This document shows, piece by piece, positions 16,847 to 54,585 of a DNA stretch of 64,000 nt; position 1 is the stretch's first letter; each line of letters starts with the position of its first letter. The stretch lies in the sequence record OQ411014.1; one strand, written 5' to 3'. The DNA comes from Escherichia phage EJP2. Both the position numbers and the translations under genes were made by a program. Under the pieces are notes generated by a model. It did no database searches. It was not told where the DNA came from and saw nothing but the letters and a program-made list of their open reading frames with translations.

Positions 16847-16875
16847 AAAAAGGAGCCTTTCGGCTCCTTTTTTTT
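16847..16875. terminator. Bidirectional hairpin terminator after the ClpA-like gene
   Basis: AAAAAGGAGCC-TTTC-GGCTCCTTTTTTTT; also terminates the convergent 3337-aa gene. Confidence 0.75.
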
Positions 16876-19800: not shown

Positions 19801-22800
19801 ATGAACCTTTGAGTAGTGCTAATGCTGCACGAACGTTTTTCTCATTATTCGTTAATGCACCATCGCTGTTGTATTGTGAGTAGTTGTTATAAAGAACATT
19901 GTTCAATTGTACAGTGCTCTTCTCACGACCAACTGCTACCCATTGAACTTGACCACGTGATTCAGTTTTTTCATATAATGTCCAGACACCATCGGCATCG
20001 GTAATACGAATCAAATCACCAATCTGGTAGTTTTTAGTGTTAGCAATTTGAATGCTTGTTTCTTCGGTATATTCTGATTCTTCATCAAAACCAACACTAT
20101 ACCAATCAGCATAATCCCAGTAGGTTGTCATATCTAATGAAGTACCAAGCTGATCAATATAGTCAGTTTGCTTAATCATAGTATGTTGACCTTCACCACG
20201 ACTCTCTAGAGTGATAGTTACCGCAGTACCAGAAGTACTTGGGCTATTCATCAAGTGAATGTAACCGTTGTCGTCGTAATGCACAAAGTACACACTAGTA
20301 CGGTTTAGTGGTGCTGGTAATGTACCATTAGTATTAACCAGTACTGCGTCATTCTCTACAAATTTGTTTTCATTTGTGGTGATAACCAATTCGTTGTTAT
20401 AAGTTAGTACTTTAAATCCAACTTCGTTCGGGTTCACAGCGTCAGTCTTCTTAAAGAAGATATCATCCATTACTACAGTGTCAGTTGTCATGTTAATATG
20501 CTTGTACACATTGTTTGCTGAATCAACAAACGTCCTACGAGCTTCTATAACGTCCATAAACCATGTTTTGTTTGCACCTAGACCCAAGTCAGTACTTGGA
20601 TAAGATAACTCAACCACGTTGCCGTTTAGGAGGGTTTCTTGAGACTCCAAAGAGTTCCATAGAGAATTCCAAATAGCTGGGTTGAAGTTGTATTCTTCAC
20701 CTTCTTTACAAAGTTGATACTGTTCATGTTTAATAACATCATCATTATTTTCTTTGTAAGAAACAGTCAATATACTCTTATCATCGTTAATGTCGTGCTG
20801 CATATTAGATAGAATAAAAGAATTCTCATCTACTGGGGAGAACCAAGGAACTCCGAGTACTGAAGGATCAGCAATAATGCGAGCAATCTCATTACAAGAT
20901 TTGGTACGATGCTTAACATGTGGAGTATAGATTGTATCTTTAACCCAGAAGTAATACATTGGCACATAAGTGTTAGTACTAGCATCATATTCAACAAAAT
21001 AAGAATAGTTTTCAGTAACTGCTGTACCGGATGGTAGGTAAGTGGTCTGGCCTTTATTTTGTTTTTGTTGTTCAGTGCAATACTGATCCCAGTTATATGG
21101 TTCTACTGGCGATTTAACCCATTCGTACACATCAATACTACCATGTGGAAGGATTTTACCCCAATTATAACGCTTATATTCTAGAGTCTTATTTACATCG
21201 ACGTTCCCATTAGCATCAAGGATTGGACGAGTATAATCCATGAAGAATGCAGAAGAAGTATCCCACCAAACTTCACCAACTTTATCAGAACCCCAAGCTA
21301 GTAATGTTTCACCATCACTATTGTAGGTTGCTGGGTCACGAGTAGAGGTATATGAAACGTTTGACATTGCCACACCAGGGATAATACCATTGATTGGGTC
21401 ATATGTGTTAATATACATCTCAACAACGTTAGTCATGGAGTTGTAGGTACTTGGGCGGTCGAACAACGAACTGTTAGGTGCTAAGTACTCATATTTTTTC
21501 TGAACGTATGCATCTTTCGCTGCTTTAGTACTGAAACGTGGAACGTATTTGTACATTACAGGTTCTGCACCACTGAAATCAAAATCTACAGTACTGTCGA
21601 ATGCAACAACTATAGTATTTGCAGTAACACCATAGAATTGTGTTTCTTCACGTAGGAAATCAGGCATATAACCGGACTCATCAACGAAGAAGTAAGTATC
21701 ACCATTACTTAGTGTAGATGAAGAACTTAATTCTAGTGTTACTTTCTGTGCTGCGTATTGGTCATCAGTAATAATTGGAGTAATTTTCTTCAAAGTGATA
21801 TTGGTTTTAACAATATCATAGATATTCCAGTTATCATTAGAATCCTGAAGAACCCATACAGACGATGGTAGTGTATTGTAATCGGAAGTATACTTAGAAC
21901 GGTCTTCATAAGCAGTTTGTAGGTCTAGAGTAGTGAATGACACTTCATCTAGAGTTACAGGGCCGATATTTGGCAACTGAATGTTGTCAGATGCACCTTT
22001 ACGCATTGGGAAAGAGAACAAACCATGTGGACGAGTAATCCAACGTGGGTCTACACCTGTTTTACCAAAATAAACGATGTTATTTGCAGTACTGTCCACA
22101 GTTGCATTCTGGTCGAATGTAACCAATTGTGGTTGTTGAGCAAATTCGTTGTTAATTAGTTGGAACTGTAGGTTCTTTTTGCCATATACGTTGCCATATT
22201 CACCGATTTTGAAAGCCCACTCTTGTAGTGCTTTGTAACCTTCGGTATTATAGGTTTTTGATACACGTAGAACACGTTCGAGTACTTGATTAGTACCTTT
22301 GTCACGGATGAAGCCTTTATAGAAATCAACGCGGGCTGGTTCTGATGTGATCATTTCGTTTAAGTAACTTCTGGACTGGTATCCAATTAAATGATTCGCT
22401 AGGGAACGCAATTGAACATCAGATACTGGATTTTCAGTGTCATAATAGTGTCTAAAGTCATCTACTAGTTTTTCAAAGTCAGGTAGTGTGCCAGTTTCGA
22501 GGATAATAAAGCCAGGTGCTTCCAAACGACCATTCCATGAGCCAGTTACATAACCGTACATACGAATCAATTCTTGAATTGAACCATAAGTTGGAATATA
22601 GATGTTATCACCAAAAATAGTTTTATCATCAAACACGATAGCATGTTCATAAGCGATTAAGCTCAAACGAATAAGAGCAATACGCTTGTTGTATTCTTCT
22701 AAACTACGAACAGTGATGATGTTACCGATACGTGCAGTTTCAATTTCATACGGACGAATACCTGTATTATTATCATCTAGTAGAGTCCATAGACCACCAC

Positions 22801-25800
22801 TATATTGTGCAACTGATTCAACAGAACCAAAAGACGCACCGAATTTAACACTTTTAGTACTTGGAGAACAAGAAATATATTCACCACGAGCTAGAGCAGT
22901 CTGACTCCAGTTCAAATAATCCTTCGCAATTTGATTCCAGTTTAGAGTGTTGCCGTTCTCGTCAGTTTCTTCGAAAATAAACCCAACACGTTCCAAATAT
23001 TCACCATAAGCACACAAGAAAGTGTAAACTTCTTGGAAAGAATTCAGTACTGTACCGTATTCAATACTTTGAACTTTATCAGTGTACTCATTGTAATGAA
23101 CTACTGTACGATTACCTTCACGAATAGTAACACGCTTACCATTACGGTTAGGAGTTAAGTATTTGAAGGATGCACCAACTAGATCATAACCAGTAATCTG
23201 ATATCCAGTGCCGTTCCATGTGATATCAACAGCACTCATTGATTCTTCACGGATGGAAGAGCTACGAACTAGACCGATATGTTGGTTTTCTTGAGAAATT
23301 AGACCGAATGTATCAGAATAAAAACTCAATTGGTCTTCTTTACTGAATCCACCAAGTTTATGACCCACATTAATATGTGAACTACGTAAAACGTCACCGT
23401 ACTTAGTAGTAATATCCATTTGTTTGTACTGTAGGTGATCAGTTATGAACATTTGGTATCCTAGGATACGGCTATTGTTCTCATTGTTCACTAGTGTAGT
23501 ACTGTTTAGGTTCAAACGTTGGTTGGTTTCACCAAATAGGAACTGTTCTTTACCACGATAAACTGTTTTAAGAGTACTACCACGAGTATCATAGAAATAG
23601 TTTGCAAACTGTGCTGGTTTAGCACGATATAGTAGTAGAGCTTCATCATATGGGAACATTGCAGTGTTGCGGTAAGTGAATTCAATATCACCCATGTCAC
23701 CATAAGACCACGGTTCTGCACGATGATCAAGGGAACCAGCCACTAAACCTAGAACTTCTGGAGCAATCAGTTCAAATGTGCGAATTTCTTCACCATCTGC
23801 TGTGAAATTACCAGTACCTTTAATAACGAATGGCTGTTTACCAAAACGTTTGTATTTTGCATAAGTTCCTTTGTTCTTACCATATAGAATTGTACCAGTA
23901 CTAGCGTCACCTTTAATACTACCAACATCCCATAGACCACTTGGTACTAATTGGTTGTTTTCATCAATAACTTCAGCTTCATACACGTATACAACTTCAG
24001 TTGGGTCTTCACCAATACGAATTTTGGTTGGTTCATATTCTTGGTTCCACCAAGATGGGCGTTGAGCAAAACCTAACATTTCCCACGGGTGGGTTGCTGG
24101 GCGATATGTACCGAACATGTCACTATAAATTGCTCTCCATGAGCCACGTGCTGGAATATCGGTAACAACGCCATCAACAACATAAGTTGTTCCTTTGTAG
24201 TTCCAAGTTAACCAGTTATTTGCATCATAATCATGTGTACTGTTATCAATACCGTTAGTTGCGATGAAGTTAGTGTAACCACGTAGTAGAAGTGTTTGCT
24301 TCTCGTCACGAGTATAGTCAGTTTCAGTAAAATAAGGAGTCGGGAATAGATCACTCTGAACAAGTTCAGGTACATAATCAATATCTTTGAAATCATTATC
24401 AATACTGTTGAAAATACGGTTTTCTAGTTCGTAAATCACATCATCCATACGACCTACACCATTCAGTACTTTATACGCCTTGGTAATTGTACCAGTATGG
24501 CTTACGTTATAACAACCTAGGTCACGACCAGCATACATATAAGTCGCTTTCTGTGGAGCGTACGCTTTTAGAATACCAATAAACTGTGGAGTCGGTGGAA
24601 TGAAGGCACGAATGTTAGAACTGGAACTACCCATCGCATCAATGAAGAATGGGAAAGTATTATTCTTACCAACGTTAATATTATTAAGAATTGCGTCAAC
24701 AATATTAGATGCACTGTTGGAAGTGAATGCAGATGGATCTTCATTGTACATATTAACCATTTGAGTATTGAATTTGTTCATGAAACGGAAGTATTCAGAT
24801 TGCATAAATTCAATTGCAGCAAATAGGTCAATATTTTCATTCGCTGTGTTAATCATTAGTGGAAGCATAGATGCTTCGTTCTGGATAATCTTAGTACCGA
24901 CAGAGTTATCAACTAGACCTTTAGCAAGACGTTCTTCGTAGTCGTTAAAATCATTTACTGTACCAGTAGTGATGTTACGTTGAATAATTTCTTGGAAATG
25001 TGGTGTATATAGACTTTGATCAATATAAGTGATAAAATCATTATACGGGTTGTTCTGTAGGTTGATTGGAATTTCATAAGAACCCAAGTTAGTATCTGGT
25101 GTTTGTACAGGACTGTAAGTTCTGATTTCAACAATGCTATCATCGGTTAGTTTGATAGAACTATCTAGAGTTATAGATTCAACAAGACCATTTTTATCCA
25201 ATTTAGTACTGAACTTTGTGGTTTCTTCTGTACCAACACGCACATAAAGTACATCTGTGCTTGATGATAGGTTGACACGTTGAGCTAGTTCAAATGTGTG
25301 GTTAAAAAGTTCAGATGGAACGTAGTCATTACCAGCTTCACGATGCCAGTCCATAAAAGTACTGTTATCTGCTTTGTAATATTTGAATGTTGCATCAATA
25401 TCCATTACATAAGCGTACATATTTTCAATTGGATTTTGGAAATTATTCATCTCTTGTACAGTACTGAATACATTGTACATAGAGGTTTTGGTCATAGCAG
25501 GAACTTGACGAACATACTGTTTGGTAAATTCATCGCTACGATCCCAGTCTGATTTTAGATTTACTGAACCGTCAGAACCAATTACGTTATAGTAATACAA
25601 ACCAGAAATTTCAGTAGTTGCTCCAACTTTATCATAATCATAACGAGTACTCTGAATGAAGTTCTCGAAAACATAATAGTTGTAAGAGTTCAATTCAACG
25701 TTAGTGTTATAGATTTTATTGTAGTTGTAGTCAAAGTTAACTTTAAGGCCAAATAGTGGGGAACCTTTAAAAGAACTACTTGGGTAAATTTGAGGATCGT

Positions 25801-26887
25801 TTAGTTTAGTCCCGTTGCGATCATACAATTGGAACAATGGGGTACTGTTAATACCTGATTTAACTTGTGTACGAATCCATGCTGAACCATTCCAGTACAT
25901 AGAAGTGTTTTCATAAACTTGACCAGATTTAATTAGAACAACGTCACCACGCAAAGGTTCACCCGTTGGGCGTAGCTCAGATTCTTCATCTTCATCAAGA
26001 GCAAGACCATATACACGAGTGCCAGCTTCGGTTTGTTTAATGTAAACTTTATAGATTCTGTTATTTTCACCGCTGTTACCGATACTAGTGAATAGAATAC
26101 GGTCACCAGCTTTAAGAATAAAACCATCAACACGAATTTCATCAGAAACTGATTTCTGTACAATATCTTCTGGTTTGATGGAGTCTGATAGGTACGTGAC
26201 TACACCACGGAAAGTAGTTCCGTAATTCATTAGTTCGATGTTTTTGTTATATTCAATGATTGGTGCTTGAGCATGAGTGAAGCGTTCATCTTGAGTCATG
26301 TCATCAGTTAGTACTGTGCCGTCTGGTAATTCTTGACCTACAGTAAACCAATAGTTTTGTAGTGACCATGTGTTACCGTTATCAGCACCACGTTCCATAA
26401 CGATATAATCCGGTGCAATACCAAATTCGTTATTATTGTCCCAAACATAAGAACTGTAGTTCATCATTTTATTTGGGTTGATTGGTGGAGTCCATGAATA
26501 AAACTTACCATCAAATAGGCGTGACTGGTTATCAGTTAAGGAACCATAATGGGACATATATCCTACTAGGTCTTCATAGAACTGCATAGAGCGAACGCTT
26601 GTGTCGGTATTACGAGACACATAAACTGGTGATAGTTGGTAGTCTTGGCGTTGTTGAGAACTTTCTTTGATGAAAATCTTTCCAGCCGCTGACGGAGTAC
26701 CACGGTCACCTATATACCCGTCAACAATTTCTTGTTCGGCAGGGTTGAACCATTGCTGGATTACATCATCACAAAAAGTTTGGATCTGTTCTAGACCTTG
26801 CATCCACTCAGGCAATCTTTTAATGAATAGCTTTTTTTGTACAGCATCTGCCGCTAGGGTTGGCTGGAACTTAAATTCATTCGACAT
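16874..26887 (-). CDS. Giant virion structural protein (~3337 aa), probable baseplate or tail-fibre component
   Basis: Uninterrupted ~10-kb ORF. Track start is 26908; the third ATG (MSNEF) at 26887 has a GGAGAAT RBS and an exact late motif at 26923-26930. Lies next to the gp6-like gene. Confidence 0.7.
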   Translation of the reverse strand: MSNEFKFQPTLAADAVQKKLFIKRLPEWMQGLEQIQTFCDDVIQQWFNPAEQEIVDGYIGDRGTPSAAGKIFIKESSQQRQDYQLSPVYVSRNTDTSVRSMQFYEDLVGYMSHYGSLTDNQSRLFDGKFYSWTPPINPNKMMNYSSYVWDNNNEFGIAPDYIVMERGADNGNTWSLQNYWFTVGQELPDGTVLTDDMTQDERFTHAQAPIIEYNKNIELMNYGTTFRGVVTYLSDSIKPEDIVQKSVSDEIRVDGFILKAGDRILFTSIGNSGENNRIYKVYIKQTEAGTRVYGLALDEDEESELRPTGEPLRGDVVLIKSGQVYENTSMYWNGSAWIRTQVKSGINSTPLFQLYDRNGTKLNDPQIYPSSSFKGSPLFGLKVNFDYNYNKIYNTNVELNSYNYYVFENFIQSTRYDYDKVGATTEISGLYYYNVIGSDGSVNLKSDWDRSDEFTKQYVRQVPAMTKTSMYNVFSTVQEMNNFQNPIENMYAYVMDIDATFKYYKADNSTFMDWHREAGNDYVPSELFNHTFELAQRVNLSSSTDVLYVRVGTEETTKFSTKLDKNGLVESITLDSSIKLTDDSIVEIRTYSPVQTPDTNLGSYEIPINLQNNPYNDFITYIDQSLYTPHFQEIIQRNITTGTVNDFNDYEERLAKGLVDNSVGTKIIQNEASMLPLMINTANENIDLFAAIEFMQSEYFRFMNKFNTQMVNMYNEDPSAFTSNSASNIVDAILNNINVGKNNTFPFFIDAMGSSSSNIRAFIPPTPQFIGILKAYAPQKATYMYAGRDLGCYNVSHTGTITKAYKVLNGVGRMDDVIYELENRIFNSIDNDFKDIDYVPELVQSDLFPTPYFTETDYTRDEKQTLLLRGYTNFIATNGIDNSTHDYDANNWLTWNYKGTTYVVDGVVTDIPARGSWRAIYSDMFGTYRPATHPWEMLGFAQRPSWWNQEYEPTKIRIGEDPTEVVYVYEAEVIDENNQLVPSGLWDVGSIKGDASTGTILYGKNKGTYAKYKRFGKQPFVIKGTGNFTADGEEIRTFELIAPEVLGLVAGSLDHRAEPWSYGDMGDIEFTYRNTAMFPYDEALLLYRAKPAQFANYFYDTRGSTLKTVYRGKEQFLFGETNQRLNLNSTTLVNNENNSRILGYQMFITDHLQYKQMDITTKYGDVLRSSHINVGHKLGGFSKEDQLSFYSDTFGLISQENQHIGLVRSSSIREESMSAVDITWNGTGYQITGYDLVGASFKYLTPNRNGKRVTIREGNRTVVHYNEYTDKVQSIEYGTVLNSFQEVYTFLCAYGEYLERVGFIFEETDENGNTLNWNQIAKDYLNWSQTALARGEYISCSPSTKSVKFGASFGSVESVAQYSGGLWTLLDDNNTGIRPYEIETARIGNIITVRSLEEYNKRIALIRLSLIAYEHAIVFDDKTIFGDNIYIPTYGSIQELIRMYGYVTGSWNGRLEAPGFIILETGTLPDFEKLVDDFRHYYDTENPVSDVQLRSLANHLIGYQSRSYLNEMITSEPARVDFYKGFIRDKGTNQVLERVLRVSKTYNTEGYKALQEWAFKIGEYGNVYGKKNLQFQLINNEFAQQPQLVTFDQNATVDSTANNIVYFGKTGVDPRWITRPHGLFSFPMRKGASDNIQLPNIGPVTLDEVSFTTLDLQTAYEDRSKYTSDYNTLPSSVWVLQDSNDNWNIYDIVKTNITLKKITPIITDDQYAAQKVTLELSSSSTLSNGDTYFFVDESGYMPDFLREETQFYGVTANTIVVAFDSTVDFDFSGAEPVMYKYVPRFSTKAAKDAYVQKKYEYLAPNSSLFDRPSTYNSMTNVVEMYINTYDPINGIIPGVAMSNVSYTSTRDPATYNSDGETLLAWGSDKVGEVWWDTSSAFFMDYTRPILDANGNVDVNKTLEYKRYNWGKILPHGSIDVYEWVKSPVEPYNWDQYCTEQQKQNKGQTTYLPSGTAVTENYSYFVEYDASTNTYVPMYYFWVKDTIYTPHVKHRTKSCNEIARIIADPSVLGVPWFSPVDENSFILSNMQHDINDDKSILTVSYKENNDDVIKHEQYQLCKEGEEYNFNPAIWNSLWNSLESQETLLNGNVVELSYPSTDLGLGANKTWFMDVIEARRTFVDSANNVYKHINMTTDTVVMDDIFFKKTDAVNPNEVGFKVLTYNNELVITTNENKFVENDAVLVNTNGTLPAPLNRTSVYFVHYDDNGYIHLMNSPSTSGTAVTITLESRGEGQHTMIKQTDYIDQLGTSLDMTTYWDYADWYSVGFDEESEYTEETSIQIANTKNYQIGDLIRITDADGVWTLYEKTESRGQVQWVAVGREKSTVQLNNVLYNNYSQYNSDGALTNNEKNVRAALALLKGSFNSVQSTVVFDMVKYVHTEQKVVDWVFKTSYIYIIGLDQSLQQRSTTDGNLINEIVQYFEEVKPYRTKIRSQIEQKTSDEDEINGLLNDLDPNGYIYVDGAWVKTQKDIWDYEYAQFNDVSQKWEIVGSLPNNFVLPNRRFQEIDVILDFDNFQCKPSSDMADITTLENVNKKYQSNTGDFLVKGSHYMLQRYAYTFPEINNAELETLIMNGITQYYPNMNISSGLKYGLDQMYATLINDVEASDEFTATLNRVIAEAEEKSESVSEVRNYVQYNTLSNRLKLTTSKSDETIGSEVGCPFKGLVLSDNPSTRLPFGFSASNGENYGYISYSKPMYDLIYDQVKEANPGFSHIEILEYMEYEYGLYTWKYVIPETDDNPESNRFYTDAVHVLSALRGTYNPDETDPYSAAEKVLENLDVDAYAVVLMPRKYVFLMSETTPGKDYSIPSNVGIEEYMEEVYITDGDMVRLSQPSLDDVPEDDKNPLYSDFLQIMSGLNKEVFFDDKNAFDNLALESQTKTIINSVVGVANSTNDPVFVDISELNPSKRDMAQLRFTVDGYGFDTSVQTQLRDQGNFNIEGYIVQNPYNRSEALVSIPRYDVALEYMNRSILEKNEIQYSYRIKNVTSVSGVVELDGDNDFVVGETVAVFVPDNSDYAVAINDGSWKTVLSVATIKDANRPKLFKVTSVSGNTVTIGGLTFTSTYNSTDESLYNQNKPTSINIVRVTSFNDPEFSAGGITRYTNNRSYRVDALDYDVFYDTSLIGGNYEPELTTNDYDVWYSTNETQTLEDGTVVDNGYYLPVYGKGVLSELVRTKMTDALEISVFEYDVAEINPTANNGSWIYSKPLVDGVYINTNSTVTVVYKSMFDSFTHVSQPKMASTMTYENGIATMPGVVPDDIILSNAEQMLVRKNNFVVRAYNGTVQNYYEKDVTYTSTGLNLGNTNEIAVYGDGYEPIPLSTYSDSLDIAPVILIGLIK

Positions 26888-26922
26888 TTTATTCTCCATA
26901 AAATTCATTTCTTCATTTGTTT

Positions 26923-26930
26923 TATTTATA
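26923..26930 (-). promoter_or_regulatory. T4-type late promoter motif TATAAATA on minus strand (3337-aa gene)
   Basis: Plus-strand TATTTATA, ~36 bp upstream of start 26887. Confidence 0.5.
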
Positions 26931-44298: not shown

Positions 44299-46491
44299 AT
44301 GGCAATTTCACAGAGTGATTACTTATTGCAAGAGATGTTGAATAAATCATCCAGTGCAAATGATAATCTTAGTGCTATGCGTGATTTGCTCATAGAACTG
44401 AATAAAAACGTTAAAAAAGGGTCAAGTAACTCACCTGGGAGTGGTGGTGGCGGTGGTTCTGGTGGTGGCGGCAGCGGCAGTTCTGATAGTAATGGAGCAG
44501 ATCCGAAGAAGTACTCAAACATGTTTAAACAGATGTTCGGTAATATGAGAGGGGCCGGAAACACCATACTTGGAAACAACGGAAATGCTGCTAACGTAAT
44601 GGGTTCACTAGGAACTACAGCAACTGGCCTTGCATCGTCATTAGGTAGGGCAATTCCAGTAGTTGGTGGGGTAACTCAAGCATTTACATTATTAGTAGAC
44701 GCTGGAATGGCAGTTTACAACTATATGAATGCTCAGTTGGAGATGTATAATGAGTTAAACAGTTCAGGTTTGACACTTGCAACTGGTATGAGTACGCTAG
44801 AACGTGCTTCTGCTAAGAGTTTGATGAGTAATGCAGAATTTGGTGAAGCATTGAAACGAAACTCTGACGTTTTAGCAGCTATGGAAGGTCAATATGGTCA
44901 TGGTGTTGAAGGTTTTGGTAATTTATTGAATACAGTTCAGAAATTGCAATCAGTTAACGGTCTATATGGTGTTTCTCAACAACAATTAGCTGATATGGCA
45001 GCAAGAAACTTCAAATATCAGAAATTATATGGCACACAAGAGTCATTACGCTCTGCTGCACAGGCTCAAAGTACTGATCTCTTTGTTCGTCAGATGACTT
45101 CATTGAGTAAGAGTGTTGGTAAGAGTGTTGACCAACTATTAGGTAATTTTGAGAACCTAACTGACAGTTTTGACAGTCAAACAAACGCCCGTTCATTGGA
45201 ACGTTTCTGGGGTCTATCAACAGACCAAGCGGCTGATGTAAACAAGGCAATGAACACTGTTTATGCTAGTTTAGGTGAAGTTGGTGTTAAGTTGCAAGCA
45301 GCAAACACTATGAAAATGTCCCAACAGCCATTGACTGAAGAATTTAATAACTTTTTTACACAAATGTTAACCGATAGAATGCGTGAAATACAACGTGCTG
45401 GTGTAAAAGATCCGAAACAAATACAGAAATATCTATCTGACTATATAAAATCTCATCAAAAGCAATTGCAGCTTGAAATTGATGCACAATATGATGCAAA
45501 AAATATACCAGCAGCAAAATTCCTTGAAGATTTGCGTAATTCAATGCAAATGTTGAACGAAAATACTTCTGATGTTAGTCCAGTAATGGAAGAATTTACA
45601 AATAGATTCAATACATGGCTACAAGACTCAGTAACTGGACCATTTAAAACTATGTGGGCTGATACACGTGATAGTGCATTGCGTTATTTGATGGATACAT
45701 ATGATTCAGTTGACAGTATATTCATGATGCCAGCACAAATGATGAAAGATTTGTTATCATATATAACTGAAGGTATGGGAGGAATGGGAACTCTGTTCTT
45801 AGGACTACCAGGACAACTGATGGATATAATTACAACAAACTTTGGTCCTGTTAAGGAAGCATTTGGTAAATTCATGGGTGATTTGATGGATATCCCAGGT
45901 CGATTGGGTGAATTCCTATGGGGAATGCTCACTGGTGATGGTTTATCTAAGAGTGCTGAGGGTCTTCAGAAGACAATTAATAGTCTATTTGGTCATATTA
46001 CTGAGATGTTTGACGGTATTATGGATTTAGAATTCAATTATGATGACATGAAAGAGAAAGTACTGGGTGTTTTCCAATCAATGAAGGATAAATTATCTGG
46101 AATTTGGGATAGTGCTAAGTCATGGATTATGGGTGACGACAAAAAAACACCAGAACCTAGTAAAAAATCCAAAACTGAAAAACTTTCAGAGAAAAATAAG
46201 ACAGAAACTAAAGCACCAACGCCTCCACCTACTAGTGTTGAGAAGAAACATCAAACAGCACAGGTAACGGAACCTCCACAATATACAAAACCTGAGAAAA
46301 TTGAGAAGGTAGAGAAGGAAGTAGCACCAGTAATGGATGTTGCTAACAATCAAGCGACGCTAGAAGAGAGCATTTTAAAAACACTAAATAATCTCATGAG
46401 TGTTGCAGAACAAACTAACCAAATCAATAATAACGCTGGCATGTATCTACGTCAAATCGCAGAAAACACCGCTGGTGCACAGAATGTATAA
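44299..46491 (+). CDS. Putative tail tape-measure / tail-length determinator (730 aa)
   Basis: Helical, Q/A/M/L-rich with Gly-rich linker (GSGGGGGSGGGGSGSS) and GxxxG-rich segment typical of tape-measure proteins; lies upstream of the portal gene; late-type motif at 44259-44266. Confidence 0.4.
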   Translation: MAISQSDYLLQEMLNKSSSANDNLSAMRDLLIELNKNVKKGSSNSPGSGGGGGSGGGGSGSSDSNGADPKKYSNMFKQMFGNMRGAGNTILGNNGNAANVMGSLGTTATGLASSLGRAIPVVGGVTQAFTLLVDAGMAVYNYMNAQLEMYNELNSSGLTLATGMSTLERASAKSLMSNAEFGEALKRNSDVLAAMEGQYGHGVEGFGNLLNTVQKLQSVNGLYGVSQQQLADMAARNFKYQKLYGTQESLRSAAQAQSTDLFVRQMTSLSKSVGKSVDQLLGNFENLTDSFDSQTNARSLERFWGLSTDQAADVNKAMNTVYASLGEVGVKLQAANTMKMSQQPLTEEFNNFFTQMLTDRMREIQRAGVKDPKQIQKYLSDYIKSHQKQLQLEIDAQYDAKNIPAAKFLEDLRNSMQMLNENTSDVSPVMEEFTNRFNTWLQDSVTGPFKTMWADTRDSALRYLMDTYDSVDSIFMMPAQMMKDLLSYITEGMGGMGTLFLGLPGQLMDIITTNFGPVKEAFGKFMGDLMDIPGRLGEFLWGMLTGDGLSKSAEGLQKTINSLFGHITEMFDGIMDLEFNYDDMKEKVLGVFQSMKDKLSGIWDSAKSWIMGDDKKTPEPSKKSKTEKLSEKNKTETKAPTPPPTSVEKKHQTAQVTEPPQYTKPEKIEKVEKEVAPVMDVANNQATLEESILKTLNNLMSVAEQTNQINNNAGMYLRQIAENTAGAQNV

Positions 46492-46506: not shown

Positions 46507-48261
46507 ATGAGTAGTTGGAAACGACATATGACCACCGCCCGTTCTAAAGTTTCAACAACCAAACAGGAACAGGCAAAAAACAAATCAGGATTGGAAACAT
46601 CAGGTTCTAAATCTAACTTTGCTTCATATCTCCCAGTGGTATACACTGGGTTACCAAACCGTACTGATAGATATCGTCAGTACGATCAAATGGACCAAGA
46701 CCCTGAAATCCGAACCGCATTAAACATCATTGCTGACTTTTGTACTCAAAGTACTGAAGATTTTGGCCTACCATTTAAGATTAAGTATAGAGATAACATT
46801 GGTGATACTGAAGTTACTACTCTTGAAGACCGTCTTGAATCATGGGCTGACCAGAATGATTTTAAAACCAGAATGTATGAAATTGTTCGTGGTCTATTAA
46901 AGTATGGCGACCAATTCTTTATCCGTGACCCAGAAACATTTGACTGGTACTGGGTAAACCCAATGAACGTAGAGCAGGTATTCGTAAACGAAGCTACTGG
47001 TAAGAACCCAGTTGTTTATTATATCCGTGACGTATCATTGAACCTACATGATAAAGTATTTTCTAACTTACAAATTGGTTTTGACCGTATGACATATCCT
47101 GGTGCAGTACCGAACGGTATGAACACTAACAGTAATATGTTTAGTAACAGTTCTGGTGGTGGATATGGTAACAGTGCAAACAGTGCTGACCCATTCAACA
47201 CAAATGGACGTATGGATATTATCCCAGTTGCCGCAGAACACGTTATTCACTTAACATTAAATACTGGACAAGATGGTGTATGGCCTTTCGGTACTAGTAT
47301 CTTAGAAGATGTGTTTAAAGTTTATAAACAAAAAGAACTTCTTGAAGATAGTATCATTATCTATCGTGTACAACGTGCTCCAGAACGTCGTGTATTTAAA
47401 ATTGACGTTGGTGATATGCAAATACCACAAGCAATGGCACACGTAGAGCGTATCAAGAATGAAATCCACCAGCGTCGTATACCTTCCAATAAAGGTGGCA
47501 GTACTTCATTAATGGATGCAGCGTATAACCCACTTAGTATTCTAGAAGACTACTTCTTCCCACAAACATCTGAAGGTCGTGGTTCATCTGTTGAAACTCT
47601 TCCTGGTGGTGATAACCTAGGTCAGATTGATGACTTGCGTTACTTCAATGATAAATTGATTCGTGGCTTACAGATTCCATCTTCTTATCTACCAATGGGG
47701 CCAAGTTCTGATGGTGGCGTTTCCTTATTTGGTGACGGTGCTACTCAAGCTATGGCAAGTGAATTACGCTTTAACAACCAATGTATGCGTTATCAACGTT
47801 TGGTTGCACGTGTATTTGATAAAGAATTCAAACGTTATATGATTTACAATGGTTATACTATTAGTGATTCTTCGTTTGAAGTGATTTTCAATCCACCAAT
47901 CAACCTAGCGTCTTATCGTCGTGCTGAACTTGATGCTCGTCTAATTAACACTTATCTACCACTAAATGACATTCCATACATTGCGAAACAAACCATTCTT
48001 AATAAGATGGGCTTTGACCAAGGTGAAATTGTCAAGAACGAACAGCTATGGATTCAAGAAAATCCAGATGCATTTGACGGTACTGGTGCTAATCCAGATG
48101 GTGAAGAAGAAGCAGGTCTTGCGTCAGTAGGTATTAATGCACCAAACGATGCTGGTACTGATTTAGGTATTGATGATGATGGAAATCTAGAAAGTGCCGA
48201 TGCGAAGTTCCAGGACATGCAAGCGGATTTTAACCCTAATACATTAGGCGATTCTTTCTAA
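46507..48261 (+). CDS. 20: Portal vertex protein, gp20-like (584 aa)
   Basis: Core region IIIYRVQRAPERRVFKIDVGDM...ETLPGGDNLGQIDDLRYF aligns to T4 gp20 ([22 protein letters not shown]...DTLPGADNTGNMEDIRWF). Confidence 0.85.
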   Translation: MSSWKRHMTTARSKVSTTKQEQAKNKSGLETSGSKSNFASYLPVVYTGLPNRTDRYRQYDQMDQDPEIRTALNIIADFCTQSTEDFGLPFKIKYRDNIGDTEVTTLEDRLESWADQNDFKTRMYEIVRGLLKYGDQFFIRDPETFDWYWVNPMNVEQVFVNEATGKNPVVYYIRDVSLNLHDKVFSNLQIGFDRMTYPGAVPNGMNTNSNMFSNSSGGGYGNSANSADPFNTNGRMDIIPVAAEHVIHLTLNTGQDGVWPFGTSILEDVFKVYKQKELLEDSIIIYRVQRAPERRVFKIDVGDMQIPQAMAHVERIKNEIHQRRIPSNKGGSTSLMDAAYNPLSILEDYFFPQTSEGRGSSVETLPGGDNLGQIDDLRYFNDKLIRGLQIPSSYLPMGPSSDGGVSLFGDGATQAMASELRFNNQCMRYQRLVARVFDKEFKRYMIYNGYTISDSSFEVIFNPPINLASYRRAELDARLINTYLPLNDIPYIAKQTILNKMGFDQGEIVKNEQLWIQENPDAFDGTGANPDGEEEAGLASVGINAPNDAGTDLGIDDDGNLESADAKFQDMQADFNPNTLGDSF

Positions 48262-48326: not shown

Positions 48327-48557
48327 ATGTTAGATGAAATCTTTGAATCAAGAGACGATTCTATGTACGACCCTGAAGATGATCAGACTGTTTATAAACT
48401 AACTGATACCAGAAAACCTAAATTGACGCTTCAGATTTTAAATAATCTAAGAAAATATCGTGAATTTAAGAAGAATGAAGAGGCACGTCGTGCTTCTGTT
48501 GTATCTGTTGTGTATGCAACACCATCTGAACCATCCGGTGGAAGTGGAATGATGTAA
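48327..48557 (+). CDS. Small prohead-associated protein (76 aa), gp67-like by position
   Basis: Small ORF between the portal and acidic core genes, as in the T4 20-67-68-21-22-23 order; followed by a strong terminator. Confidence 0.4.
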   Translation: MLDEIFESRDDSMYDPEDDQTVYKLTDTRKPKLTLQILNNLRKYREFKKNEEARRASVVSVVYATPSEPSGGSGMM

Positions 48558-48590
48558 AAGAGCGATTTTAAACCCCTTTTAAAAATCGCT
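48554..48590 (+). terminator. Rho-independent terminator after the 76-aa gene
   Basis: AGCGATTTTAAA-CCCCTTTT-AAAAATCGCT followed by TTTTTTT. Confidence 0.65.
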
Positions 48591-48596
48591 TTTTTT

Positions 48597-48604
48597 AAAA
48601 AGTA
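48597..48604 (+). promoter_or_regulatory. T4-type late promoter motif TATAAATA (acidic core protein)
   Basis: Exact TATAAATA ~52 bp upstream of ATG 48656; extended TATAAATAATCACATACTGAAA resembles the motif upstream of the capsid gene. Confidence 0.55.
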
Positions 48605-48655
48605 TAAATAATCACATACTGAAATATAAAATTTTGTATATCTTTGGAGGATATC

Positions 48656-49525
48656 ATGGCAAACAAAAAATTACTACAAGAAGCTATTCAGGCTTTTGCA
48701 AATGGTGAACACGCTGTTGCTGATAAAAAACTACGTAAATATTTTATCGAAACCGCTCAAGAAATTAACAAGAAACTAGAAGAAGAAATGGAAGCGGAAG
48801 AGTGTGAAGAAATCTCTGAAGCGGAAGAAGTAGAAGACTGTGAAGAAGTCGTTGCTGAAGACATTCATTCTGGTCAATCAGAAGATCTAACTGGTGAAAT
48901 TCAATATGCACTAGGTGAAGCTGAAGACGAAGAAGTTGAAGCTGGCGAAGAAGAAATTGGTATCGACGGTGACGAAGAAGTTGCTGGCGAAGAAGAAGTT
49001 GAAGTTGAGTCTGGTGACCTACCAACTCAAGACCAATGGGCTTCCATTAAAGATGCAATTGATTCTCTAAGCAAGCGTTTCGATGAAATCGAAGGCGAAG
49101 GCGACATTGACCTAGATGTTGAAGGTGATGATGTTGGTGATGAAGAAGAAATTTCCGATTTCGAAATTGACGATGCAGGTGAAGAAGAATTTGGTGATGT
49201 ACAGTTCGGTGATGAGAAATTTGGCGAATCTTACAAAATGAAACCAGTTTCTAAACCAGGTAACGATGCAGCTAAATCTAAATCTCCAGTTGCACCAAAC
49301 GCTAAATCTCCAGTAGACGGCGTTGACCCAGTTAAGATCAAAGATGGTAACGTTGTTACTAACGATGGCGAACTTCTAAAAAATAAAGATGCTGACACTG
49401 CTAAAGTGGAAGACATGAACAACGTTATGGATAATGCTAAAGGTCTAATGAAAGACGTTAAGAAACCAGCTAATAAAGCTGACAAATCTAAGTCTGTAGT
49501 TCCATCAAAAGCACCAAAGTTCTAA
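48656..49525 (+). CDS. Highly acidic prohead core / internal protein (~290 aa)
   Basis: Asp/Glu-rich with EEVE/GEEE repeats; start placed at MANKKLL (GGAGGA RBS); exact TATAAATA at 48597-48604. Confidence 0.55.
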   Translation: MANKKLLQEAIQAFANGEHAVADKKLRKYFIETAQEINKKLEEEMEAEECEEISEAEEVEDCEEVVAEDIHSGQSEDLTGEIQYALGEAEDEEVEAGEEEIGIDGDEEVAGEEEVEVESGDLPTQDQWASIKDAIDSLSKRFDEIEGEGDIDLDVEGDDVGDEEEISDFEIDDAGEEEFGDVQFGDEKFGESYKMKPVSKPGNDAAKSKSPVAPNAKSPVDGVDPVKIKDGNVVTNDGELLKNKDADTAKVEDMNNVMDNAKGLMKDVKKPANKADKSKSVVPSKAPKF

Positions 49526-49559: not shown

Positions 49560-50183
49560 ATGAACATGATAAGAGAGTGGTCTTCATTCAGTGATTCGAA
49601 CATTGTACTTGAATATCAAGAAAACAAATTAGGCGGTAAGGATTGCTACCTTCGTGGTATTGCAATCCAAGCCGATAAACGAAACCTGAACGAACGTATC
49701 TACCCACTAAATGAAATTGCTCATGCTGTTGAAGTTATGCAACAACGTCTGCAACGTGGTGAGAGCATTCTTGTTGAATGTGACCACCCAGAAACACTAA
49801 CTATTAACTTAGACCGAGTTGCAGCCAAAATTACGAAAGTATGGATGGAAGGTCACAATGGTATGGCAGAAATTAAACTTCTACCAACCTCACATGGCAA
49901 AAACATTCGGGCTATGCTCGAAGCAGGTGTAAAATTGGGTGTAAGCTCACGTGGTTCTGGTAACGTTGACCATAACGGTATCGTATCAGATTTCGAAATT
50001 GTTACTATTGATATTGTTGCTCAACCAAGTGCTCCAGATGCTTATCCAGAAGCAGTATTTGAGTCTCTAAACTATAAGTACGGTTCACCTGCTAACGGAA
50101 GAAAATCTATCGTTGAAAACAAGAAAGTTCCTACTTCAGTAGAAAACGAAATTCACGATTTTTTCAAGAAATTAAAAGGTTAA
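49560..50183 (+). CDS. Prohead core protease, gp21-like (207 aa)
   Basis: Size, position before scaffold and capsid genes, and motifs (YLRGIAIQADKRNLNERIYP...GVSSRGSG) consistent with the T4 gp21 protease family; recalled from memory. Confidence 0.6.
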   Translation: MNMIREWSSFSDSNIVLEYQENKLGGKDCYLRGIAIQADKRNLNERIYPLNEIAHAVEVMQQRLQRGESILVECDHPETLTINLDRVAAKITKVWMEGHNGMAEIKLLPTSHGKNIRAMLEAGVKLGVSSRGSGNVDHNGIVSDFEIVTIDIVAQPSAPDAYPEAVFESLNYKYGSPANGRKSIVENKKVPTSVENEIHDFFKKLKG

Positions 50184-50194: not shown

Positions 50195-50202
50195 TATAAA
50201 TA
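50195..50202 (+). promoter_or_regulatory. T4-type late promoter motif TATAAATA (scaffold gene)
   Basis: Exact TATAAATA ~54 bp upstream of ATG 50256. Confidence 0.55.
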
Positions 50203-50255: not shown

Positions 50256-51371
50256 ATGTCGAAATTAGATAAGTTTCTAAACGAATCTAGTCTTTCTGAT
50301 GAGGCTAAAGCACTTATCCAGGAAGCATGGAATGAAGAAAAAGCTATTGTAGCTGCCGAAATGCGTGAAGAAATGAAAGGACGTTACCAAGAAGATTTAG
50401 GTCGCTTAACTGAAGGTCTAAATACAATGATGACTGGTGTCATCAACGAAGAAATGAAAACCGTATATGATGAACGTAAACGTCTATCAGAAGATCGTGT
50501 TACTCTTCGTAAAACCCTTGGCAACTTTTCACAATTTGCAAACGGTGTGCTAGCTGAAGAAGTTAAAGGTATGCGTACTGAACGTATCCAAGTTCAAGAA
50601 AGTCTAGACAAGTTCATCGGTTTTAGTAATAAAATCCTAGCTGAAGAACTAAAAGACTTCCATACAGAAAAAACCCAACTAGTTGAAGCACGCGTTAAAC
50701 TAATCGCTGAAGGTCATAAGCAAATTGCTGAAGCCCGTCAGAACTTTGTAAAACGTGCCGCTGAATCCGCTGCTGTTTATATCGCAGAAACCACTCACAA
50801 AAATCTATCGTCTCTTAAAGATGATCTTCGTGAAGCTAAACAAAATATGTTTGGTCGTAAAATTTTCGAAGCGTTTGCGAATGAGTTCCACAATAAACAA
50901 TATAGCGAAAATTCAATTCTACGTCAGTTGACCGAATCTGTGAAACAACATGAAAGCGAAGTGATGGATATGAAGGTCGCTCTTCAAGAATCCAAACAAG
51001 TAGCTGCTGATGCACAACGTAAGATGCGTATCATGGAAGATACTCAAGCTCGTGCAGCAATCATGTCTGAACTGGTTAAGCCTCTTAACCCACAGCAAAA
51101 ACAAATTATGGAATCACTACTTCAAACTTCCCCTACTGCGAAGCTAAAAGACGATTTCAACAAGTATCATAAATCTGTACTGAAAGGTACACTAAATGAG
51201 TCTGCTGCAAAAGGCCGCCCAGCAGTTGATAATAAGGCAAACAAACAAACTCTAGCTGAAGGTAAAGTTATTACCGGAAATCGAGCAGCGATTGTTGAAA
51301 ATGAAATGGACAGTACTGATATGGCGTTCCTCAAAGAAATCGAACACCTTGCAGGAATGACCAAAAAATAA
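50256..51371 (+). CDS. Prohead scaffold protein, gp22-like (coiled-coil, ~371 aa)
   Basis: Charged helical protein immediately upstream of the major capsid gene; exact TATAAATA at 50195-50202; start placed at the ATG with AAGGAGA RBS. Confidence 0.55.
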   Translation: MSKLDKFLNESSLSDEAKALIQEAWNEEKAIVAAEMREEMKGRYQEDLGRLTEGLNTMMTGVINEEMKTVYDERKRLSEDRVTLRKTLGNFSQFANGVLAEEVKGMRTERIQVQESLDKFIGFSNKILAEELKDFHTEKTQLVEARVKLIAEGHKQIAEARQNFVKRAAESAAVYIAETTHKNLSSLKDDLREAKQNMFGRKIFEAFANEFHNKQYSENSILRQLTESVKQHESEVMDMKVALQESKQVAADAQRKMRIMEDTQARAAIMSELVKPLNPQQKQIMESLLQTSPTAKLKDDFNKYHKSVLKGTLNESAAKGRPAVDNKANKQTLAEGKVITGNRAAIVENEMDSTDMAFLKEIEHLAGMTKK

Positions 51372-51399
51372 TTATTTTATAAAGCTAATCTTTTTCAGT

Positions 51400-51407
51400 G
51401 ATAAATA
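51400..51407 (+). promoter_or_regulatory. Late-promoter-like motif GATAAATA (major capsid gene)
   Basis: 7/8 match to TATAAATA, 48 bp upstream of ATG 51455; shares downstream ACATACTGAAA with the 48597 motif. Confidence 0.4.
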
Positions 51408-51454
51408 ATAACATACTGAAAAGCGAAATAAACCATCTTTTAAGGAGATATAAA

Positions 51455-52630
51455 ATGTCACAACTATTAACTGAATCTAAATGGGCACAAGTTAAGAGCA
51501 AACTAACCGAAGGTCTAAAAGACAACCGTAAACTAGTAATGGAATCTGTTCTAGAAAACCATCGTAAAGTAATGCTAAACGAAAACGCTTCTGGCGGTGC
51601 AACTTCTGCTGGTAACATTGCTACCCTAAACAAAGTAATTCTACCAATCATGCGTCGTGTAATGCCAACCGTTATCGCTAACGAAATCATCGGTGTTCAA
51701 CCAATGTCTGGCCCAGTTGGTCAAATCCATACCCTACGTGTTCAATATGCTGATAACGCACCAGGCGTTGTAGCTGGTGAAGAAATGCTATCCCCATACA
51801 AAATCGCTAAGTCCTATACTGGTGATGTGAATGGCGATAACGAAAATCCACGTGCTGCTCCTACTAGTCAACTAGAAGGTACTATGGGTCGTCGCGTTAA
51901 CATCCGTATCCTACGTGAAACCGTTGAAGCGAAATCTCGTCGTCTATCCGCTCGTTGGACTGTTGAATCTGCACAAGATGCACAATCTCAACACGGTATC
52001 GATATCGAAGCTGAACTAATGGCTGCTATCGCTCAAGAAGTTACTACTGAAATCGACCAAGAGCTACTACACAAACTACGTGCTCTACCTGGTGCTGCTG
52101 CTGTAACTTATGACCAATCCAAAGTTACTGGTGTTGCTACTTTCGTTGGTGATGAACATGCTGCTCTAGCTACTCTAATCAACCGTCAAGCGAACGAAGT
52201 TGCTCGTCGTACCAAACGTGGTGCTGCAAACTGGGCTGTTGTTTCCCCAACCGCACTAACCATTCTACAGTCTGCAACTACTTCTAGCTTTGCTCGTACC
52301 ACCGAAGGTACTTTCGAAGCACCAACTAACGTTAAGTTTGTTGGCGTACTAAACAGTACTATGCGTATCTATGTTGATACCTATGCAGATGACAGTACTG
52401 ATGTACTAATCGGTTACAAAGGTAATGCTGAAACTGATGCTGGCGTGTTCTACTGCCCGTACATCCCACTAATGGCTTCCGGTACTGTAATGGACCCTAA
52501 CACTGGGGAACTCGTAACAACATTCTTAACCAGATATGGCTACGTACAGTTGACCGACAGTACCAGTTCTCTTGGTAACGCGGCTGACTACTACAGCAAA
52601 ATTGCTATCCGCAACGTAACCTTCATGTAA
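51455..52630 (+). CDS. 23: Major capsid protein, gp23-like (~391 aa)
   Basis: Three blocks align to T4 gp23: ILPIMRRVMPTVIANEIIGVQPMSGPVGQIHTLRVQY; VNIRILRETVEAKSRRLSARWTVESAQD; MRIYVDTYADDSTDVLIGYKGNAETDAGVFYCPYIPL. Start at ATG 51455 with GGAGAT RBS. Confidence 0.9.
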   Translation: MSQLLTESKWAQVKSKLTEGLKDNRKLVMESVLENHRKVMLNENASGGATSAGNIATLNKVILPIMRRVMPTVIANEIIGVQPMSGPVGQIHTLRVQYADNAPGVVAGEEMLSPYKIAKSYTGDVNGDNENPRAAPTSQLEGTMGRRVNIRILRETVEAKSRRLSARWTVESAQDAQSQHGIDIEAELMAAIAQEVTTEIDQELLHKLRALPGAAAVTYDQSKVTGVATFVGDEHAALATLINRQANEVARRTKRGAANWAVVSPTALTILQSATTSSFARTTEGTFEAPTNVKFVGVLNSTMRIYVDTYADDSTDVLIGYKGNAETDAGVFYCPYIPLMASGTVMDPNTGELVTTFLTRYGYVQLTDSTSSLGNAADYYSKIAIRNVTFM

Positions 52631-52728: not shown

Positions 52729-53823
52729 ATGCCTAAATCATCAATGACTCAACAAGAATTCGAAACTAAAATGACCGAGAAGTATGGTAAAGTAGATTTC
52801 AGTACTATGACGTTTAAGTTGAGTAAAACTACAATCAATTGTCCTAAGTGTGGAAACGCAAATACCAAATCTGCAATCCGACACATTGAATGTACTTGTG
52901 CAAACTGTTTTTCCAATATGTCACAACGTTCTAGTAATGAAATTTTCATCGAAAAAGTAGAAAACAAATTCGGAGCAGGTAAGTTCAAATTCGACAAACT
53001 AAATTATCATAACGCCAAAACTCCGGTTGAATTGTTCTGCACTGAACATAATGCATATTTCACCATTGTCCCAAATAAAATGCTCACTGGACATGGTTGT
53101 AATGTATGTAATAAAAATGAAGCACATACTACTGAAAGTTTCATTACAATTGCGAAAAAGAATTATGGCACTACCACGTTTGACTTCACTAATACAGTGT
53201 ATGTTAACCGCCAAACTAAAGTATCAATCCATTGTAACGAAGGTAATCACGAATGGTTAGTTAACCCAGCAACTATAATCGCCGGAATAAACCAATGTGG
53301 TGTCTGTAAACGCAAATCTGGTATGACAACGGAACGTTTTATTAGTGATGCAAACTCTGTACATGATAATGCATACACATATGAGAACACTGTTTATAAA
53401 AGAAGTGAATGTGTCGTAGATATCACATGTCCAAAGCATGGAAACTTTACACAATCACCAAAGTCACACCTTCGTGGTCGTGGATGTCCAAAGTGTGGTA
53501 AGTATGGTTATCAACAAACACAGCCAGGTTACTTCTATATTCAGAAGTTGACGAATGAGAACAAAACTGTGTATAAGTACGGAATCACTGGTGACATGAA
53601 ACGTCGCGTCCAAGAACAATCCCGTGATTCTGTATTTGAACACGAAGTGCTTGTTGAAATGTACTTTGAAGACGGAAAGAAACCAATGGCATTAGAATCA
53701 CTGTTGAAGAACTATATTGAGAGTGGAGTCACCAGTACTGAAGAATTGCCATCAGGATTTTCGGAAACCTTTGATGAGAAGTACTTAGATGAAGTACTAT
53801 CCATAGTAAATAACTTTAGGTAA
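52729..53823 (+). CDS. Homing-endonuclease-like protein: N-terminal zinc-ribbon repeats plus C-terminal T5orf172 (GIY-YIG-related) domain
   Basis: Four repeats of C..C / HG-F...P..H-x-G-x-GCP-x-C type; C-terminal GYFYIQKL...VYKYGITGDMKRRVQE block; own near-consensus sigma70 promoter at 52658-52686. Confidence 0.6.
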   Translation: MPKSSMTQQEFETKMTEKYGKVDFSTMTFKLSKTTINCPKCGNANTKSAIRHIECTCANCFSNMSQRSSNEIFIEKVENKFGAGKFKFDKLNYHNAKTPVELFCTEHNAYFTIVPNKMLTGHGCNVCNKNEAHTTESFITIAKKNYGTTTFDFTNTVYVNRQTKVSIHCNEGNHEWLVNPATIIAGINQCGVCKRKSGMTTERFISDANSVHDNAYTYENTVYKRSECVVDITCPKHGNFTQSPKSHLRGRGCPKCGKYGYQQTQPGYFYIQKLTNENKTVYKYGITGDMKRRVQEQSRDSVFEHEVLVEMYFEDGKKPMALESLLKNYIESGVTSTEELPSGFSETFDEKYLDEVLSIVNNFR

Positions 53824-54276: not shown

Positions 54277-54582
54277 ATGCAAATATGTTACGTAATCACC
54301 AATAAAGCATGGCCTGAGTGGGTAAAAATTGGATTCACATCTAAATCAGAGATGAAATCCAGACTAAGTACATACCAGACGGGTTCACCATTTAGAGATT
54401 ATGAAGTATATCATGAAGTACTATTTGATGATGCGAAATCCGCTGAAAAAGAAGTACATAAGCGTTTAAAACAAATGAATGCAACTAGATCACCAGGGAC
54501 TGAGTGGTTTAAAATGAGTAAAAAAATAGCAGCCAATATGATTGATTCAGTTCTAGATGATATAGAGAACGACTTGCTATAA
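54277..54582 (+). CDS. Stand-alone T5orf172-domain protein (101 aa), homing-endonuclease-like
   Basis: ICYVITNKAWPEWVKIGFT...RLSTYQTGSPF...EKEVHKRL...GTEWF matches the T5orf172 pattern; GGGAGA RBS. Confidence 0.6.
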   Translation: MQICYVITNKAWPEWVKIGFTSKSEMKSRLSTYQTGSPFRDYEVYHEVLFDDAKSAEKEVHKRLKQMNATRSPGTEWFKMSKKIAANMIDSVLDDIENDLL

Positions 54583-54585
54583 ATA
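54578..54585 (+). promoter_or_regulatory. T4-type late promoter motif TATAAATA (tail fibre gene)
   Basis: Exact TATAAATA 38 bp upstream of ATG 54623. Confidence 0.55.

Follow-up and report, generated by a model that had tools for sequence, protein, structure and literature searches.

What function does a highly acidic protein serve when its gene lies between the portal and the prohead protease genes of a giant phage, and how much of it reaches the mature head? The question is raised by a stretch of 64,000 nucleotides from Escherichia phage EJP2 (OQ411014.1; analysed as a whole and hereafter called the window), in which such a gene occupies positions 48656..49525 of the + strand, stop codon included. 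The DNA is that of a jumbo myovirus of the RaK2-like kind, and a preliminary description, prepared from its letters alone, had compared the product with the acidic core proteins of T4. We propose that this product is a late-expressed prohead-core protein which would be cut by the head protease and whose basic C-terminal part would stay in the head, a reading to which we assign a probability of roughly 55%. The protein is the positional counterpart of T4 gp67/gp68 and, judged by analogy, probably their functional counterpart.

A conserved family of acidic virion proteins

The open reading frame (ORF) encodes 289 residues and is a real gene. It starts at ATG 48656, 5 nt downstream of a Shine-Dalgarno sequence, GGAGG (48646..48650, +), read directly from the DNA; in the family alignment the homologues likewise begin with MAN, and the alternative start TTG at 48644 is not the one that they use. 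The product is as acidic as had been described, with a pI of 4.1 and 51 glutamate and 34 aspartate residues. Residues 1-44 are charge-neutral, residues 45-197 hold 64 D/E against 6 K/R (net charge -58) and residues 198-289 are basic (pI 9.5), the entire basic C-terminal part corresponding to the last 98 residues.

Over practically its full length (residues 1-288) the protein matches positions 1-270 of the 271 in phrog_15696, annotated as "virion structural protein", with E = 1.9e-85. The relatives in this family, RaK2 gp091, CBB_254, GAP32_247, 121Q gp600 and phAPEC6 gp228, have the same synteny and the same architecture, and differ from the window protein in the length of their acidic tracts. 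In a set of 5.8 billion proteins 132 homologues were found at E <= 1e-3, and among 1.84 billion representatives the family profile is matched by 111 clusters at 50% identity; nearly all of these clusters have lengths of 240-340 aa, with matches that begin at residue 1, and the distant ones keep the layout. By tblastn, the homologues in the phage database are 41-69% identical at the amino acid level, that of Erwinia phage Hallingskeid reaching 69%, and metagenomic proteins are up to 100% identical. The family is already catalogued, and already known as virion-associated, and the window adds another member to it.

A distant group, in which PA5oct gp332 (Arenbergviridae) stands beside about 90 clusters of metagenomic origin, shares with the window protein its length, N-terminal module, central helix and acidic tracts, and also the hydrophobic-x-E|S/A motif, the duplicated basic C-terminal motif and the gene order, although its sequence identity is low and the clusters reach only E = 1e-4 to 1e-12 against the family profile. 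PA5oct gp332 itself is 39% identical to a related metagenomic protein, P0141, and another distant member, P0225, had no tblastn match in the phage database. Searches of Pfam and NCBIfam and a sequence-profile search of the PDB gave no accepted match for the acidic protein, and the family profile matched none of the chains of solved structures. Weak Pfam matches to DUF1771, RegB and Spc42p (E = 0.002-0.2) were set aside as noise of the kind that coiled helices produce. The virion reports of RaK2, CBB and phAPEC6 assign no function to the phrog_15696 homologues.

A near-invariant motif between acidic and basic parts

Modelled with AlphaFold2 on the family alignment, the protein is predicted to be helical at residues 2-15, 19-59 and 125-147 (pLDDT 74-90) and disordered elsewhere, with pLDDT below 50 in the acidic tracts; for the model overall, pLDDT averages 56 and pTM is 0.21. 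The N-terminal helical module (residues 1-44; 48656..48787, +; pLDDT 74-86), gp67-like in form, is the best-conserved block of the alignment. It is followed by the polyacidic region (residues 45-191; 48788..49228, +), recognisable by its charge and low pLDDT, where indels are confined to three disordered tracts (residues 45-67, 89-121 and 148-176, within 48788..49228, +) split by conserved segments. One such segment is a central amphipathic helix (residues 122-147, P..DQW.SIKDA...L..FDEI.G; 49019..49096, +), modelled at 125-147 with pLDDT 79-90, whose length has a standard deviation (sd) of only 0.2 aa. Other conserved blocks are a short one around Y84-E88, the sequence FGDEK.GES(Y/F)KMK and the basic tail. 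The basic C-terminal part (residues 192-289; 49229..49522, +) carries a net charge of +5 to +7.

At the border between the acidic and the basic parts lies F189-G190-E191|S192 (49220..49231, +), which motif conservation marks as a predicted prohead-protease cleavage site. Hydrophobic-x-E sites are conserved at E9, E32, E43, E68, E88, E144 and E191, and the last of these is the most conserved feature across the whole family: of 214 members, 212 have V/L/M/F/I at P3, 213 have E at P1 and 194 have S/A/G at P1'. The gp21 protease of T4 cuts after L/I-X-E (PMC9026906), and the E191 motif matches both this specificity and the LTE|A site of T4 gp23. The same T4 gp23 site aligns with MLNE|NASGG, the predicted maturation site of the major capsid protein (MCP) of the window, which fits the processing of the 121Q MCP, reported to run at 42 and then at 37 kDa (PMC5646251). 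The presumed processing enzyme is encoded immediately downstream of the acidic gene, a gp21-like S77 prohead protease (49560..50183, +; PF03420, E = 4e-20; phrog_207, E = 7e-57), and from the motif we infer that this head protease would cleave the acidic protein at E191|S192.

Homologues in virions and the C-terminal peptides of CBB

The presence of the family in virions is known from homologues in purified virions of four phages. RaK2 gp091 is represented by 5 peptides and 16.7% coverage (PMC3622015, supplement), CBB_254 by 3 peptides and 15.5% (PMC5259590) and phAPEC6 gp228 by 5 peptides and 16.7% (PMC7247149), and the virion detection of PA5oct gp332 is stated in its annotation ("ESI-MS/MS"). 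Virion proteomics was the check suggested in the preliminary description, with absence from virions as the observation that would count against it; these detections of homologues by mass spectrometry (MS) are the opposite.

In the supplementary peptide table of CBB, 17 rows belong to CBB_254 (ORF CBB+3_026) and represent three peptides, SPVDGVKPVTIK (7 rows), DGTVDATDDKFENSDALDAK (6 rows) and VEDHNNVMDNGK (4 rows), every one of the 17 lying downstream of the E191-equivalent motif and mapping to the basic C-terminal part. The same table has no row for three tryptic peptides of suitable size, LLQEAIQAFANGDNEVADK and YFVEQAQEINK from the N-terminal module and TAFDALER from the central helix. This is the pattern expected if just the C-terminal part is retained.

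Comparison with the core proteins of T4

In T4, gp67 and gp68 are prohead-core proteins present in ~340 and ~240 copies, respectively, and degraded by gp21 (PMC9958956), and what the head contains is taken to include material derived from gp67 (PMC7697877). In T4 gp67 an N-terminal helix is joined to a polyacidic tail, which bears out the likeness to T4 acidic core proteins drawn in the preliminary description: T4 gp67 and the window protein are both encoded between portal and protease, and in both an N-terminal helical module is followed by a polyacidic stretch. There are also differences: gp67-like proteins have 53-117 aa, adjoin the portal and lack both a central helix and a basic C-terminal domain, whereas the window protein, with 289 aa, has both and, unlike gp67, is separated from the portal by a small ORF of 76 codons (orf76).

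A homology search with T4 gp67 was unusable for obtaining a diverse profile, all of the 120 top matches listed being more than 90% identical, and the gp67-like profile was derived from the ORFs found between portal and protease in 69 environmental T4-like loci and in Syn9, KVP40-like, Vi1-like and other phages. In the T4-like loci the portal-adjacent gene typically encodes 53-117 aa, in which a MDDLIDMI..D(E/D)S.. helix leads into a polyacidic tail, and its product can be aligned in a coherent manner with T4 gp67. When the N-terminal module was compared by hhalign with 21 diverse gp67-like proteins, a weak similarity was obtained (P = 0.0046, 37 columns, probability 7.6%), running from N-terminus to N-terminus and surpassing all 60 column-shuffled controls, the best of which reached 0.1, as well as a reversed control (0.21). 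Against T4-type gp67 the similarity was likewise weak (P = 0.0011, probability 20%), and against the single T4 gp67 and gp68 sequences hhalign gave nothing significant (gp68 P = 0.61). Because the profile similarity is weak and no family model is matched, the label gp67-like is limited here to organisation and position, and homology with gp67 is possible.

As for gp68, the T4 protein and the window protein resemble each other in being encoded immediately upstream of the protease and in joining an acidic N-terminal part to a basic C-terminal one, strongly basic in gp68, a resemblance that is not evidence of homology. T4 gp68 is a non-essential core protein of net positive charge, and its Arg/Lys-rich tail bears a ...KKALKRRKALGLS signature that is absent from the window protein. 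Homology was rejected after comparison with an alignment of eight gp68-like members (hhalign P = 0.27); by its sequence the acidic protein is not a gp68 homologue.

In many contigs of cyanophage or pelagiphage type among the environmental T4-like loci (L013-L092), the portal is adjoined by a gp67-like protein of ~75 aa, with a MDDLIDMI..DES.. helix and an acidic tail, and an uncharged, apparently beta-rich protein of ~89 or 180 aa takes the place of gp68; other contigs of this series have one acidic protein of 91-117 aa instead.

Repetition and length drift in the acidic region

The preliminary description had taken the acidic region for a series of repeated EEVE, GEEE and DDVGDEEE segments encoded by GAAGAAG-type DNA repeats whose copy number may vary by slippage. 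EEVE and GEEE do occur three times each, but DDVGDEEE occurs once, and the coding sequence is GAA-rich, but forms no true array. In fact, TRF reported only three weak arrays in the gene, the best with 2.1 copies of period 21 and a score of 60, and the repeat families found within the gene by a repeat search are 64-81% identical. When the order of the codons in the acidic region was shuffled, repeated 9-, 12- and 15-mers proved marginally more frequent than expected (p = 0.11, 0.05 and 0.11, respectively), and the longest exact repeat, of 15 nt, was equally unexceptional (p = 0.10). A true tandem array was accordingly rejected, and the repetition is mainly a by-product of composition. Of the 51 glutamate codons, 48 are GAA and 3 are GAG (94% GAA, against 80% in the neighbouring genes), and it is this almost exclusive use of GAA that makes the DNA rich in GAAGAAG. 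The acidic region is essentially low-complexity, GAA-rich sequence.

What varies between relatives is the length of the low-complexity tracts. In four independent metagenomic contigs, 99.6% identical to the window over 3.87 kb, the sole indel is one GAA unit: the run (GAA)3 at 48989..48997 (+), which encodes E112-E114, is (GAA)2 in these contigs. Among 121 RaK2-like homologues, length varies solely in the three acidic tracts (sd 5-9 aa), and the conserved segments and helices are nearly constant (sd 0.2-2.3 aa). Despite this variation, the family keeps a median net charge of -56 to -60 in residues 45-191 and of +6/+7 in the tail, and the pattern of charge and length is likewise kept in 93 distant members. 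These data support slippage at the scale of triplets, with indels drifting while charge is constrained. The region has no discrete repeat units, and the part of the earlier claim that spoke of acidic blocks varying in copy number was overstated and is not supported.

The basic tail, which the preliminary description had not mentioned, does contain a duplication. Two copies of a 66-nt direct repeat with 71% identity, at 49237..49302 (+) and 49447..49512 (+), encode the basic motif MK.V.KP.N.A.KSKS.V.P twice, as MKPVSKPGNDAAKSKSPVAPNA and MKDVKKPANKADKSKSVVPSKA, respectively. The duplication is also found in PA5oct gp332, as a near-perfect repeat of ~30 aa, in contrast to the diverged copies of the window.

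Genomic context and predicted late expression

The gap between orf76 and the acidic gene contains a terminator-like hairpin with a U-run (48556..48598, +; -12.5 kcal/mol, z = -4.6, none of 200 shuffles as stable), followed by TATAAATA (48603..48610, +), which by motif and position is a probable -10 element of a T4-type late promoter and precedes the ATG by 46 nt. Six copies of TATAAATA are present in the window, at 6665-6672(-), 8815-8822(+), 26923-26930(-), 48603-48610(+), 50195-50202(+) and 54578-54585(+), a total not above shuffle expectation; all six are intergenic, in a window of which 6.7% is non-coding, and lie 15-60 nt upstream of a start codon on the same strand. Their probable identity is that of late promoters of T4 type, and a gp55-like late sigma factor is among the products encoded by RaK2-like phages (PMC5259590). 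Two giant ORFs, at 16874-26908 (-; 3344 aa) and 996-6605 (-; 1869 aa), are each preceded by TATAAATA; very large virion proteins occur in RaK2-like phages, and phAPEC6, for instance, has one of 382 kDa.

The head module is 83% identical at the nucleotide level to that of Hallingskeid, the closest cultured phage, and 77-80% identical to those of Salmonella phage Munch, Serratia phage BF and 121Q/PBECO4-type Escherichia phages. Its genes follow the order baseplate hub (-), 730-aa tape-measure-like virion protein, portal, 76-aa ORF, acidic protein, S77 protease, 371-aa scaffold-position protein, gp23-type MCP and homing-endonuclease-like ORF, and in T4 the counterpart order is 20-67-68-21-22-23-segD. 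The acidic gene thus stands in the gene 67/68 slot, between portal plus orf76 on one side and the S77 protease on the other, and its placement within the head module was correctly recognised from the start. The order from portal to MCP is kept in CBB and in the distant PA5oct, and the position of the acidic gene between portal/small ORF and S77 protease is kept in metagenomic contigs as well.

The portal protein is of T4 type (46507..48261, +; PF07230, E = 7.8e-111). Between it and the acidic gene, orf76 (48327..48557, +; PHROG match to phrog_13986) is a conserved partner. Its product has the motif DTRKPKLT..LN.LRK.RE and is 35% identical to PA5oct gp333, a protein annotated as structural and detected by MS; homologues of orf76 are not among the reported virion proteins of RaK2, CBB and phAPEC6. 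Downstream of the protease, the 371-aa protein (50256..51371, +; phrog_10922) occupies the gp22 slot and is annotated as scaffolding protein in relatives, and it matches neither Pfam T4_CASP nor the PHROG of T4 gp22. The MCP gene (51455..52630, +; PF07068, E = 6.6e-91) was listed as an ORF beginning with GTG at 51398 (51398-52630, +); the ATG at 51455 gives 391 aa, the length of the 121Q MCP. Directly after it, the homing-endonuclease-like ORF (52729-53823, +; phrog_681/559, weak T5orf172/zinc-finger matches) takes the place that belongs to segD in T4 and, in PA5oct, to a Hef-like endonuclease. The 730-aa protein (44299-46491, +; phrog_14121), encoded between baseplate hub and portal, has a Gly/Ser-rich stretch near its N-terminus and weak tape-measure matches, and might serve either as tape measure or inside the head. 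Its homologue in CBB, CBB_251, is an abundant virion protein, with 29 peptides and 50% coverage.

Discussion

A number of observations weigh against a gp67-like core protein that is processed at E191. Neither the whole acidic protein nor its N-terminal 70 aa alone matches PF17634 or phrog_1064 even at E <= 10, whereas T4 gp67, as positive control, scores 1.8e-48 against the gp67 family model; the acidic protein likewise lacks a match to phrog_1049 (gp68) at E <= 10, and hhalign assigns a probability of only 7-20% to gp67 and none to gp68. The hydrophobic-x-E motif is short, and the protein in which it occurs is rich in glutamate. Moreover, the acidic tracts have no K/R and are invisible to tryptic MS, which partly explains the missing peptides of the acidic region. 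Finally, the CBB peptides were recovered from gel slices 02, 03, 07 and 08, and slice 08 contains mostly proteins of 22-34 kDa, above the ~10.5 kDa that a fragment starting at residue 192 and reaching the C-terminus should have, so that the virion species may be bigger or migrate anomalously; the order of the slices with respect to mass is not clean in this gel.

These gel data are also compatible with a large species, and bring forward a serious, if doubtful, alternative: a protein of the head interior, or one that is ejected, which would remain practically whole or, in the manner of T4 IPI-III, be shortened merely by an N-terminal targeting peptide, and which would form a stoichiometric part of an inner-body rod embedded in the DNA instead of passing transiently through the core. 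RaK2-like jumbo phages have T=28 heads with ~350 kb of DNA and an inner-body rod (PMC7247149, PMC5646251), and the phiKZ-like inner body seen in bubblegrams of 121Q and phAPEC6, measuring 91 x 18 nm in the latter (PMC5646251, PMC7247149), speaks for such a protein, as does the occurrence of homologues in the virions of four phages. The protease-removed capsid-targeting sequence of T4 has ~10 residues (PMC7697877), and KLLQE|A at E9 of the window protein resembles it, although this IPI-III-like site is present in only 61% of the family. The absence from CBB virions of N-terminal peptides beyond residue 9 argues against simple removal of a targeting sequence, and the peptides missing from the N-terminal module and central helix are of ideal size for detection. 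A polyanion of about -55 would furthermore be electrostatically unfavourable among packed DNA, and the coverage of 15-17% in three proteomes is similar to that of residual protease and scaffold. The authors of the phAPEC6 study found no phAPEC6 protein similar in sequence to the inner-body proteins of phiKZ. The latter are likewise head-internal proteins of a jumbo phage, but their composition is unlike that of the window protein. Thomas and colleagues are said to have described in 2012 that they are processed after Glu by a gp21-like protease.

Low coverage of the protease and the scaffold, which are also expected to leave the head, in the same preparations would equally suit an assembly chaperone or scaffold accessory that is fully removed from mature heads, the MS signal then coming from contaminating proheads or incompletely matured particles. 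We hold this to be improbable, given that the family was detected in four independent preparations and laboratories and that the CBB peptides, spread over four to seven gel slices, are always C-terminal, which unprocessed proheads would not predict. Even less can be said for a place on the capsid surface, as an acidic decoration protein or as the anchor of fibres in the 'hairy' RaK2-like virions, which bear unusual fibres and capsid decoration densities to which no protein has been assigned, and for which a family annotated merely as 'structural' might be considered; a largely disordered prediction with no globular or Ig-like domain, a gene placed between portal and protease and away from the decoration and fibre genes, a conserved protease-type motif and a family profile that matches no chain of a solved structure make this very unlikely. 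A DNA-mimic anti-restriction protein, that is, an Ocr/ArdA-like polyanionic decoy delivered with the genome, would account for the extreme acidity and could be co-injected if packaged, but is hardly credible, as known mimics are folded and rigid whereas the acidic parts here are disordered and variable in length, no match was found in Pfam or NCBIfam (PADLOC was not searched), the gene has a late promoter and lies in the head-morphogenesis module, and the acidic part is precisely the one not seen in virions.

For the reading that we favour, a core protein cleaved by the head protease, the following sequence of events may be envisaged. After late synthesis, the N-terminal module and the central helix would attach the protein to the scaffolding core while the prohead assembles, and there the three disordered polyacidic tracts, held at a net charge of about -55 while their sequence and length drift, would act as a space-filling polyanion. 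The adjacent S77 protease would then cut at hydrophobic-x-Glu sites, above all at E191|S192, and free the basic C-terminal part of ~98 aa. By analogy with the T4 core proteins, the polyanion, once cut, would be repelled by the incoming DNA and exit the head, and the freed C-terminal part, with its duplicated MK..KP..KSKS..P motif, would stay in the DNA-filled head, a step to which the MS data on the CBB homologue lend partial support. A bolder version, against which we consider the odds to be clear, holds that a gp67-type core-targeting module and polyacidic propeptide deliver the basic duplicated-motif domain, which after cleavage would become a DNA-associated constituent of the inner-body rod in RaK2-like and PA5oct-like phages.

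The contribution of the present analysis to this family lies in its conserved charge architecture, the near-invariant protease-type site, the restriction of the peptides to the C-terminal part in published raw data and a weak link to gp67. The position of that site, between a polyacidic propeptide that drifts in length and a basic domain that would be retained, provides a testable signature. If the proposed reading is correct, it would give a role to a conserved "hypothetical/structural" gene in the core of the head-morphogenesis module, would extend the logic of the T4 gp67/gp68 core proteins to giant phages and would supply a candidate for head-internal, possibly inner-body, material.

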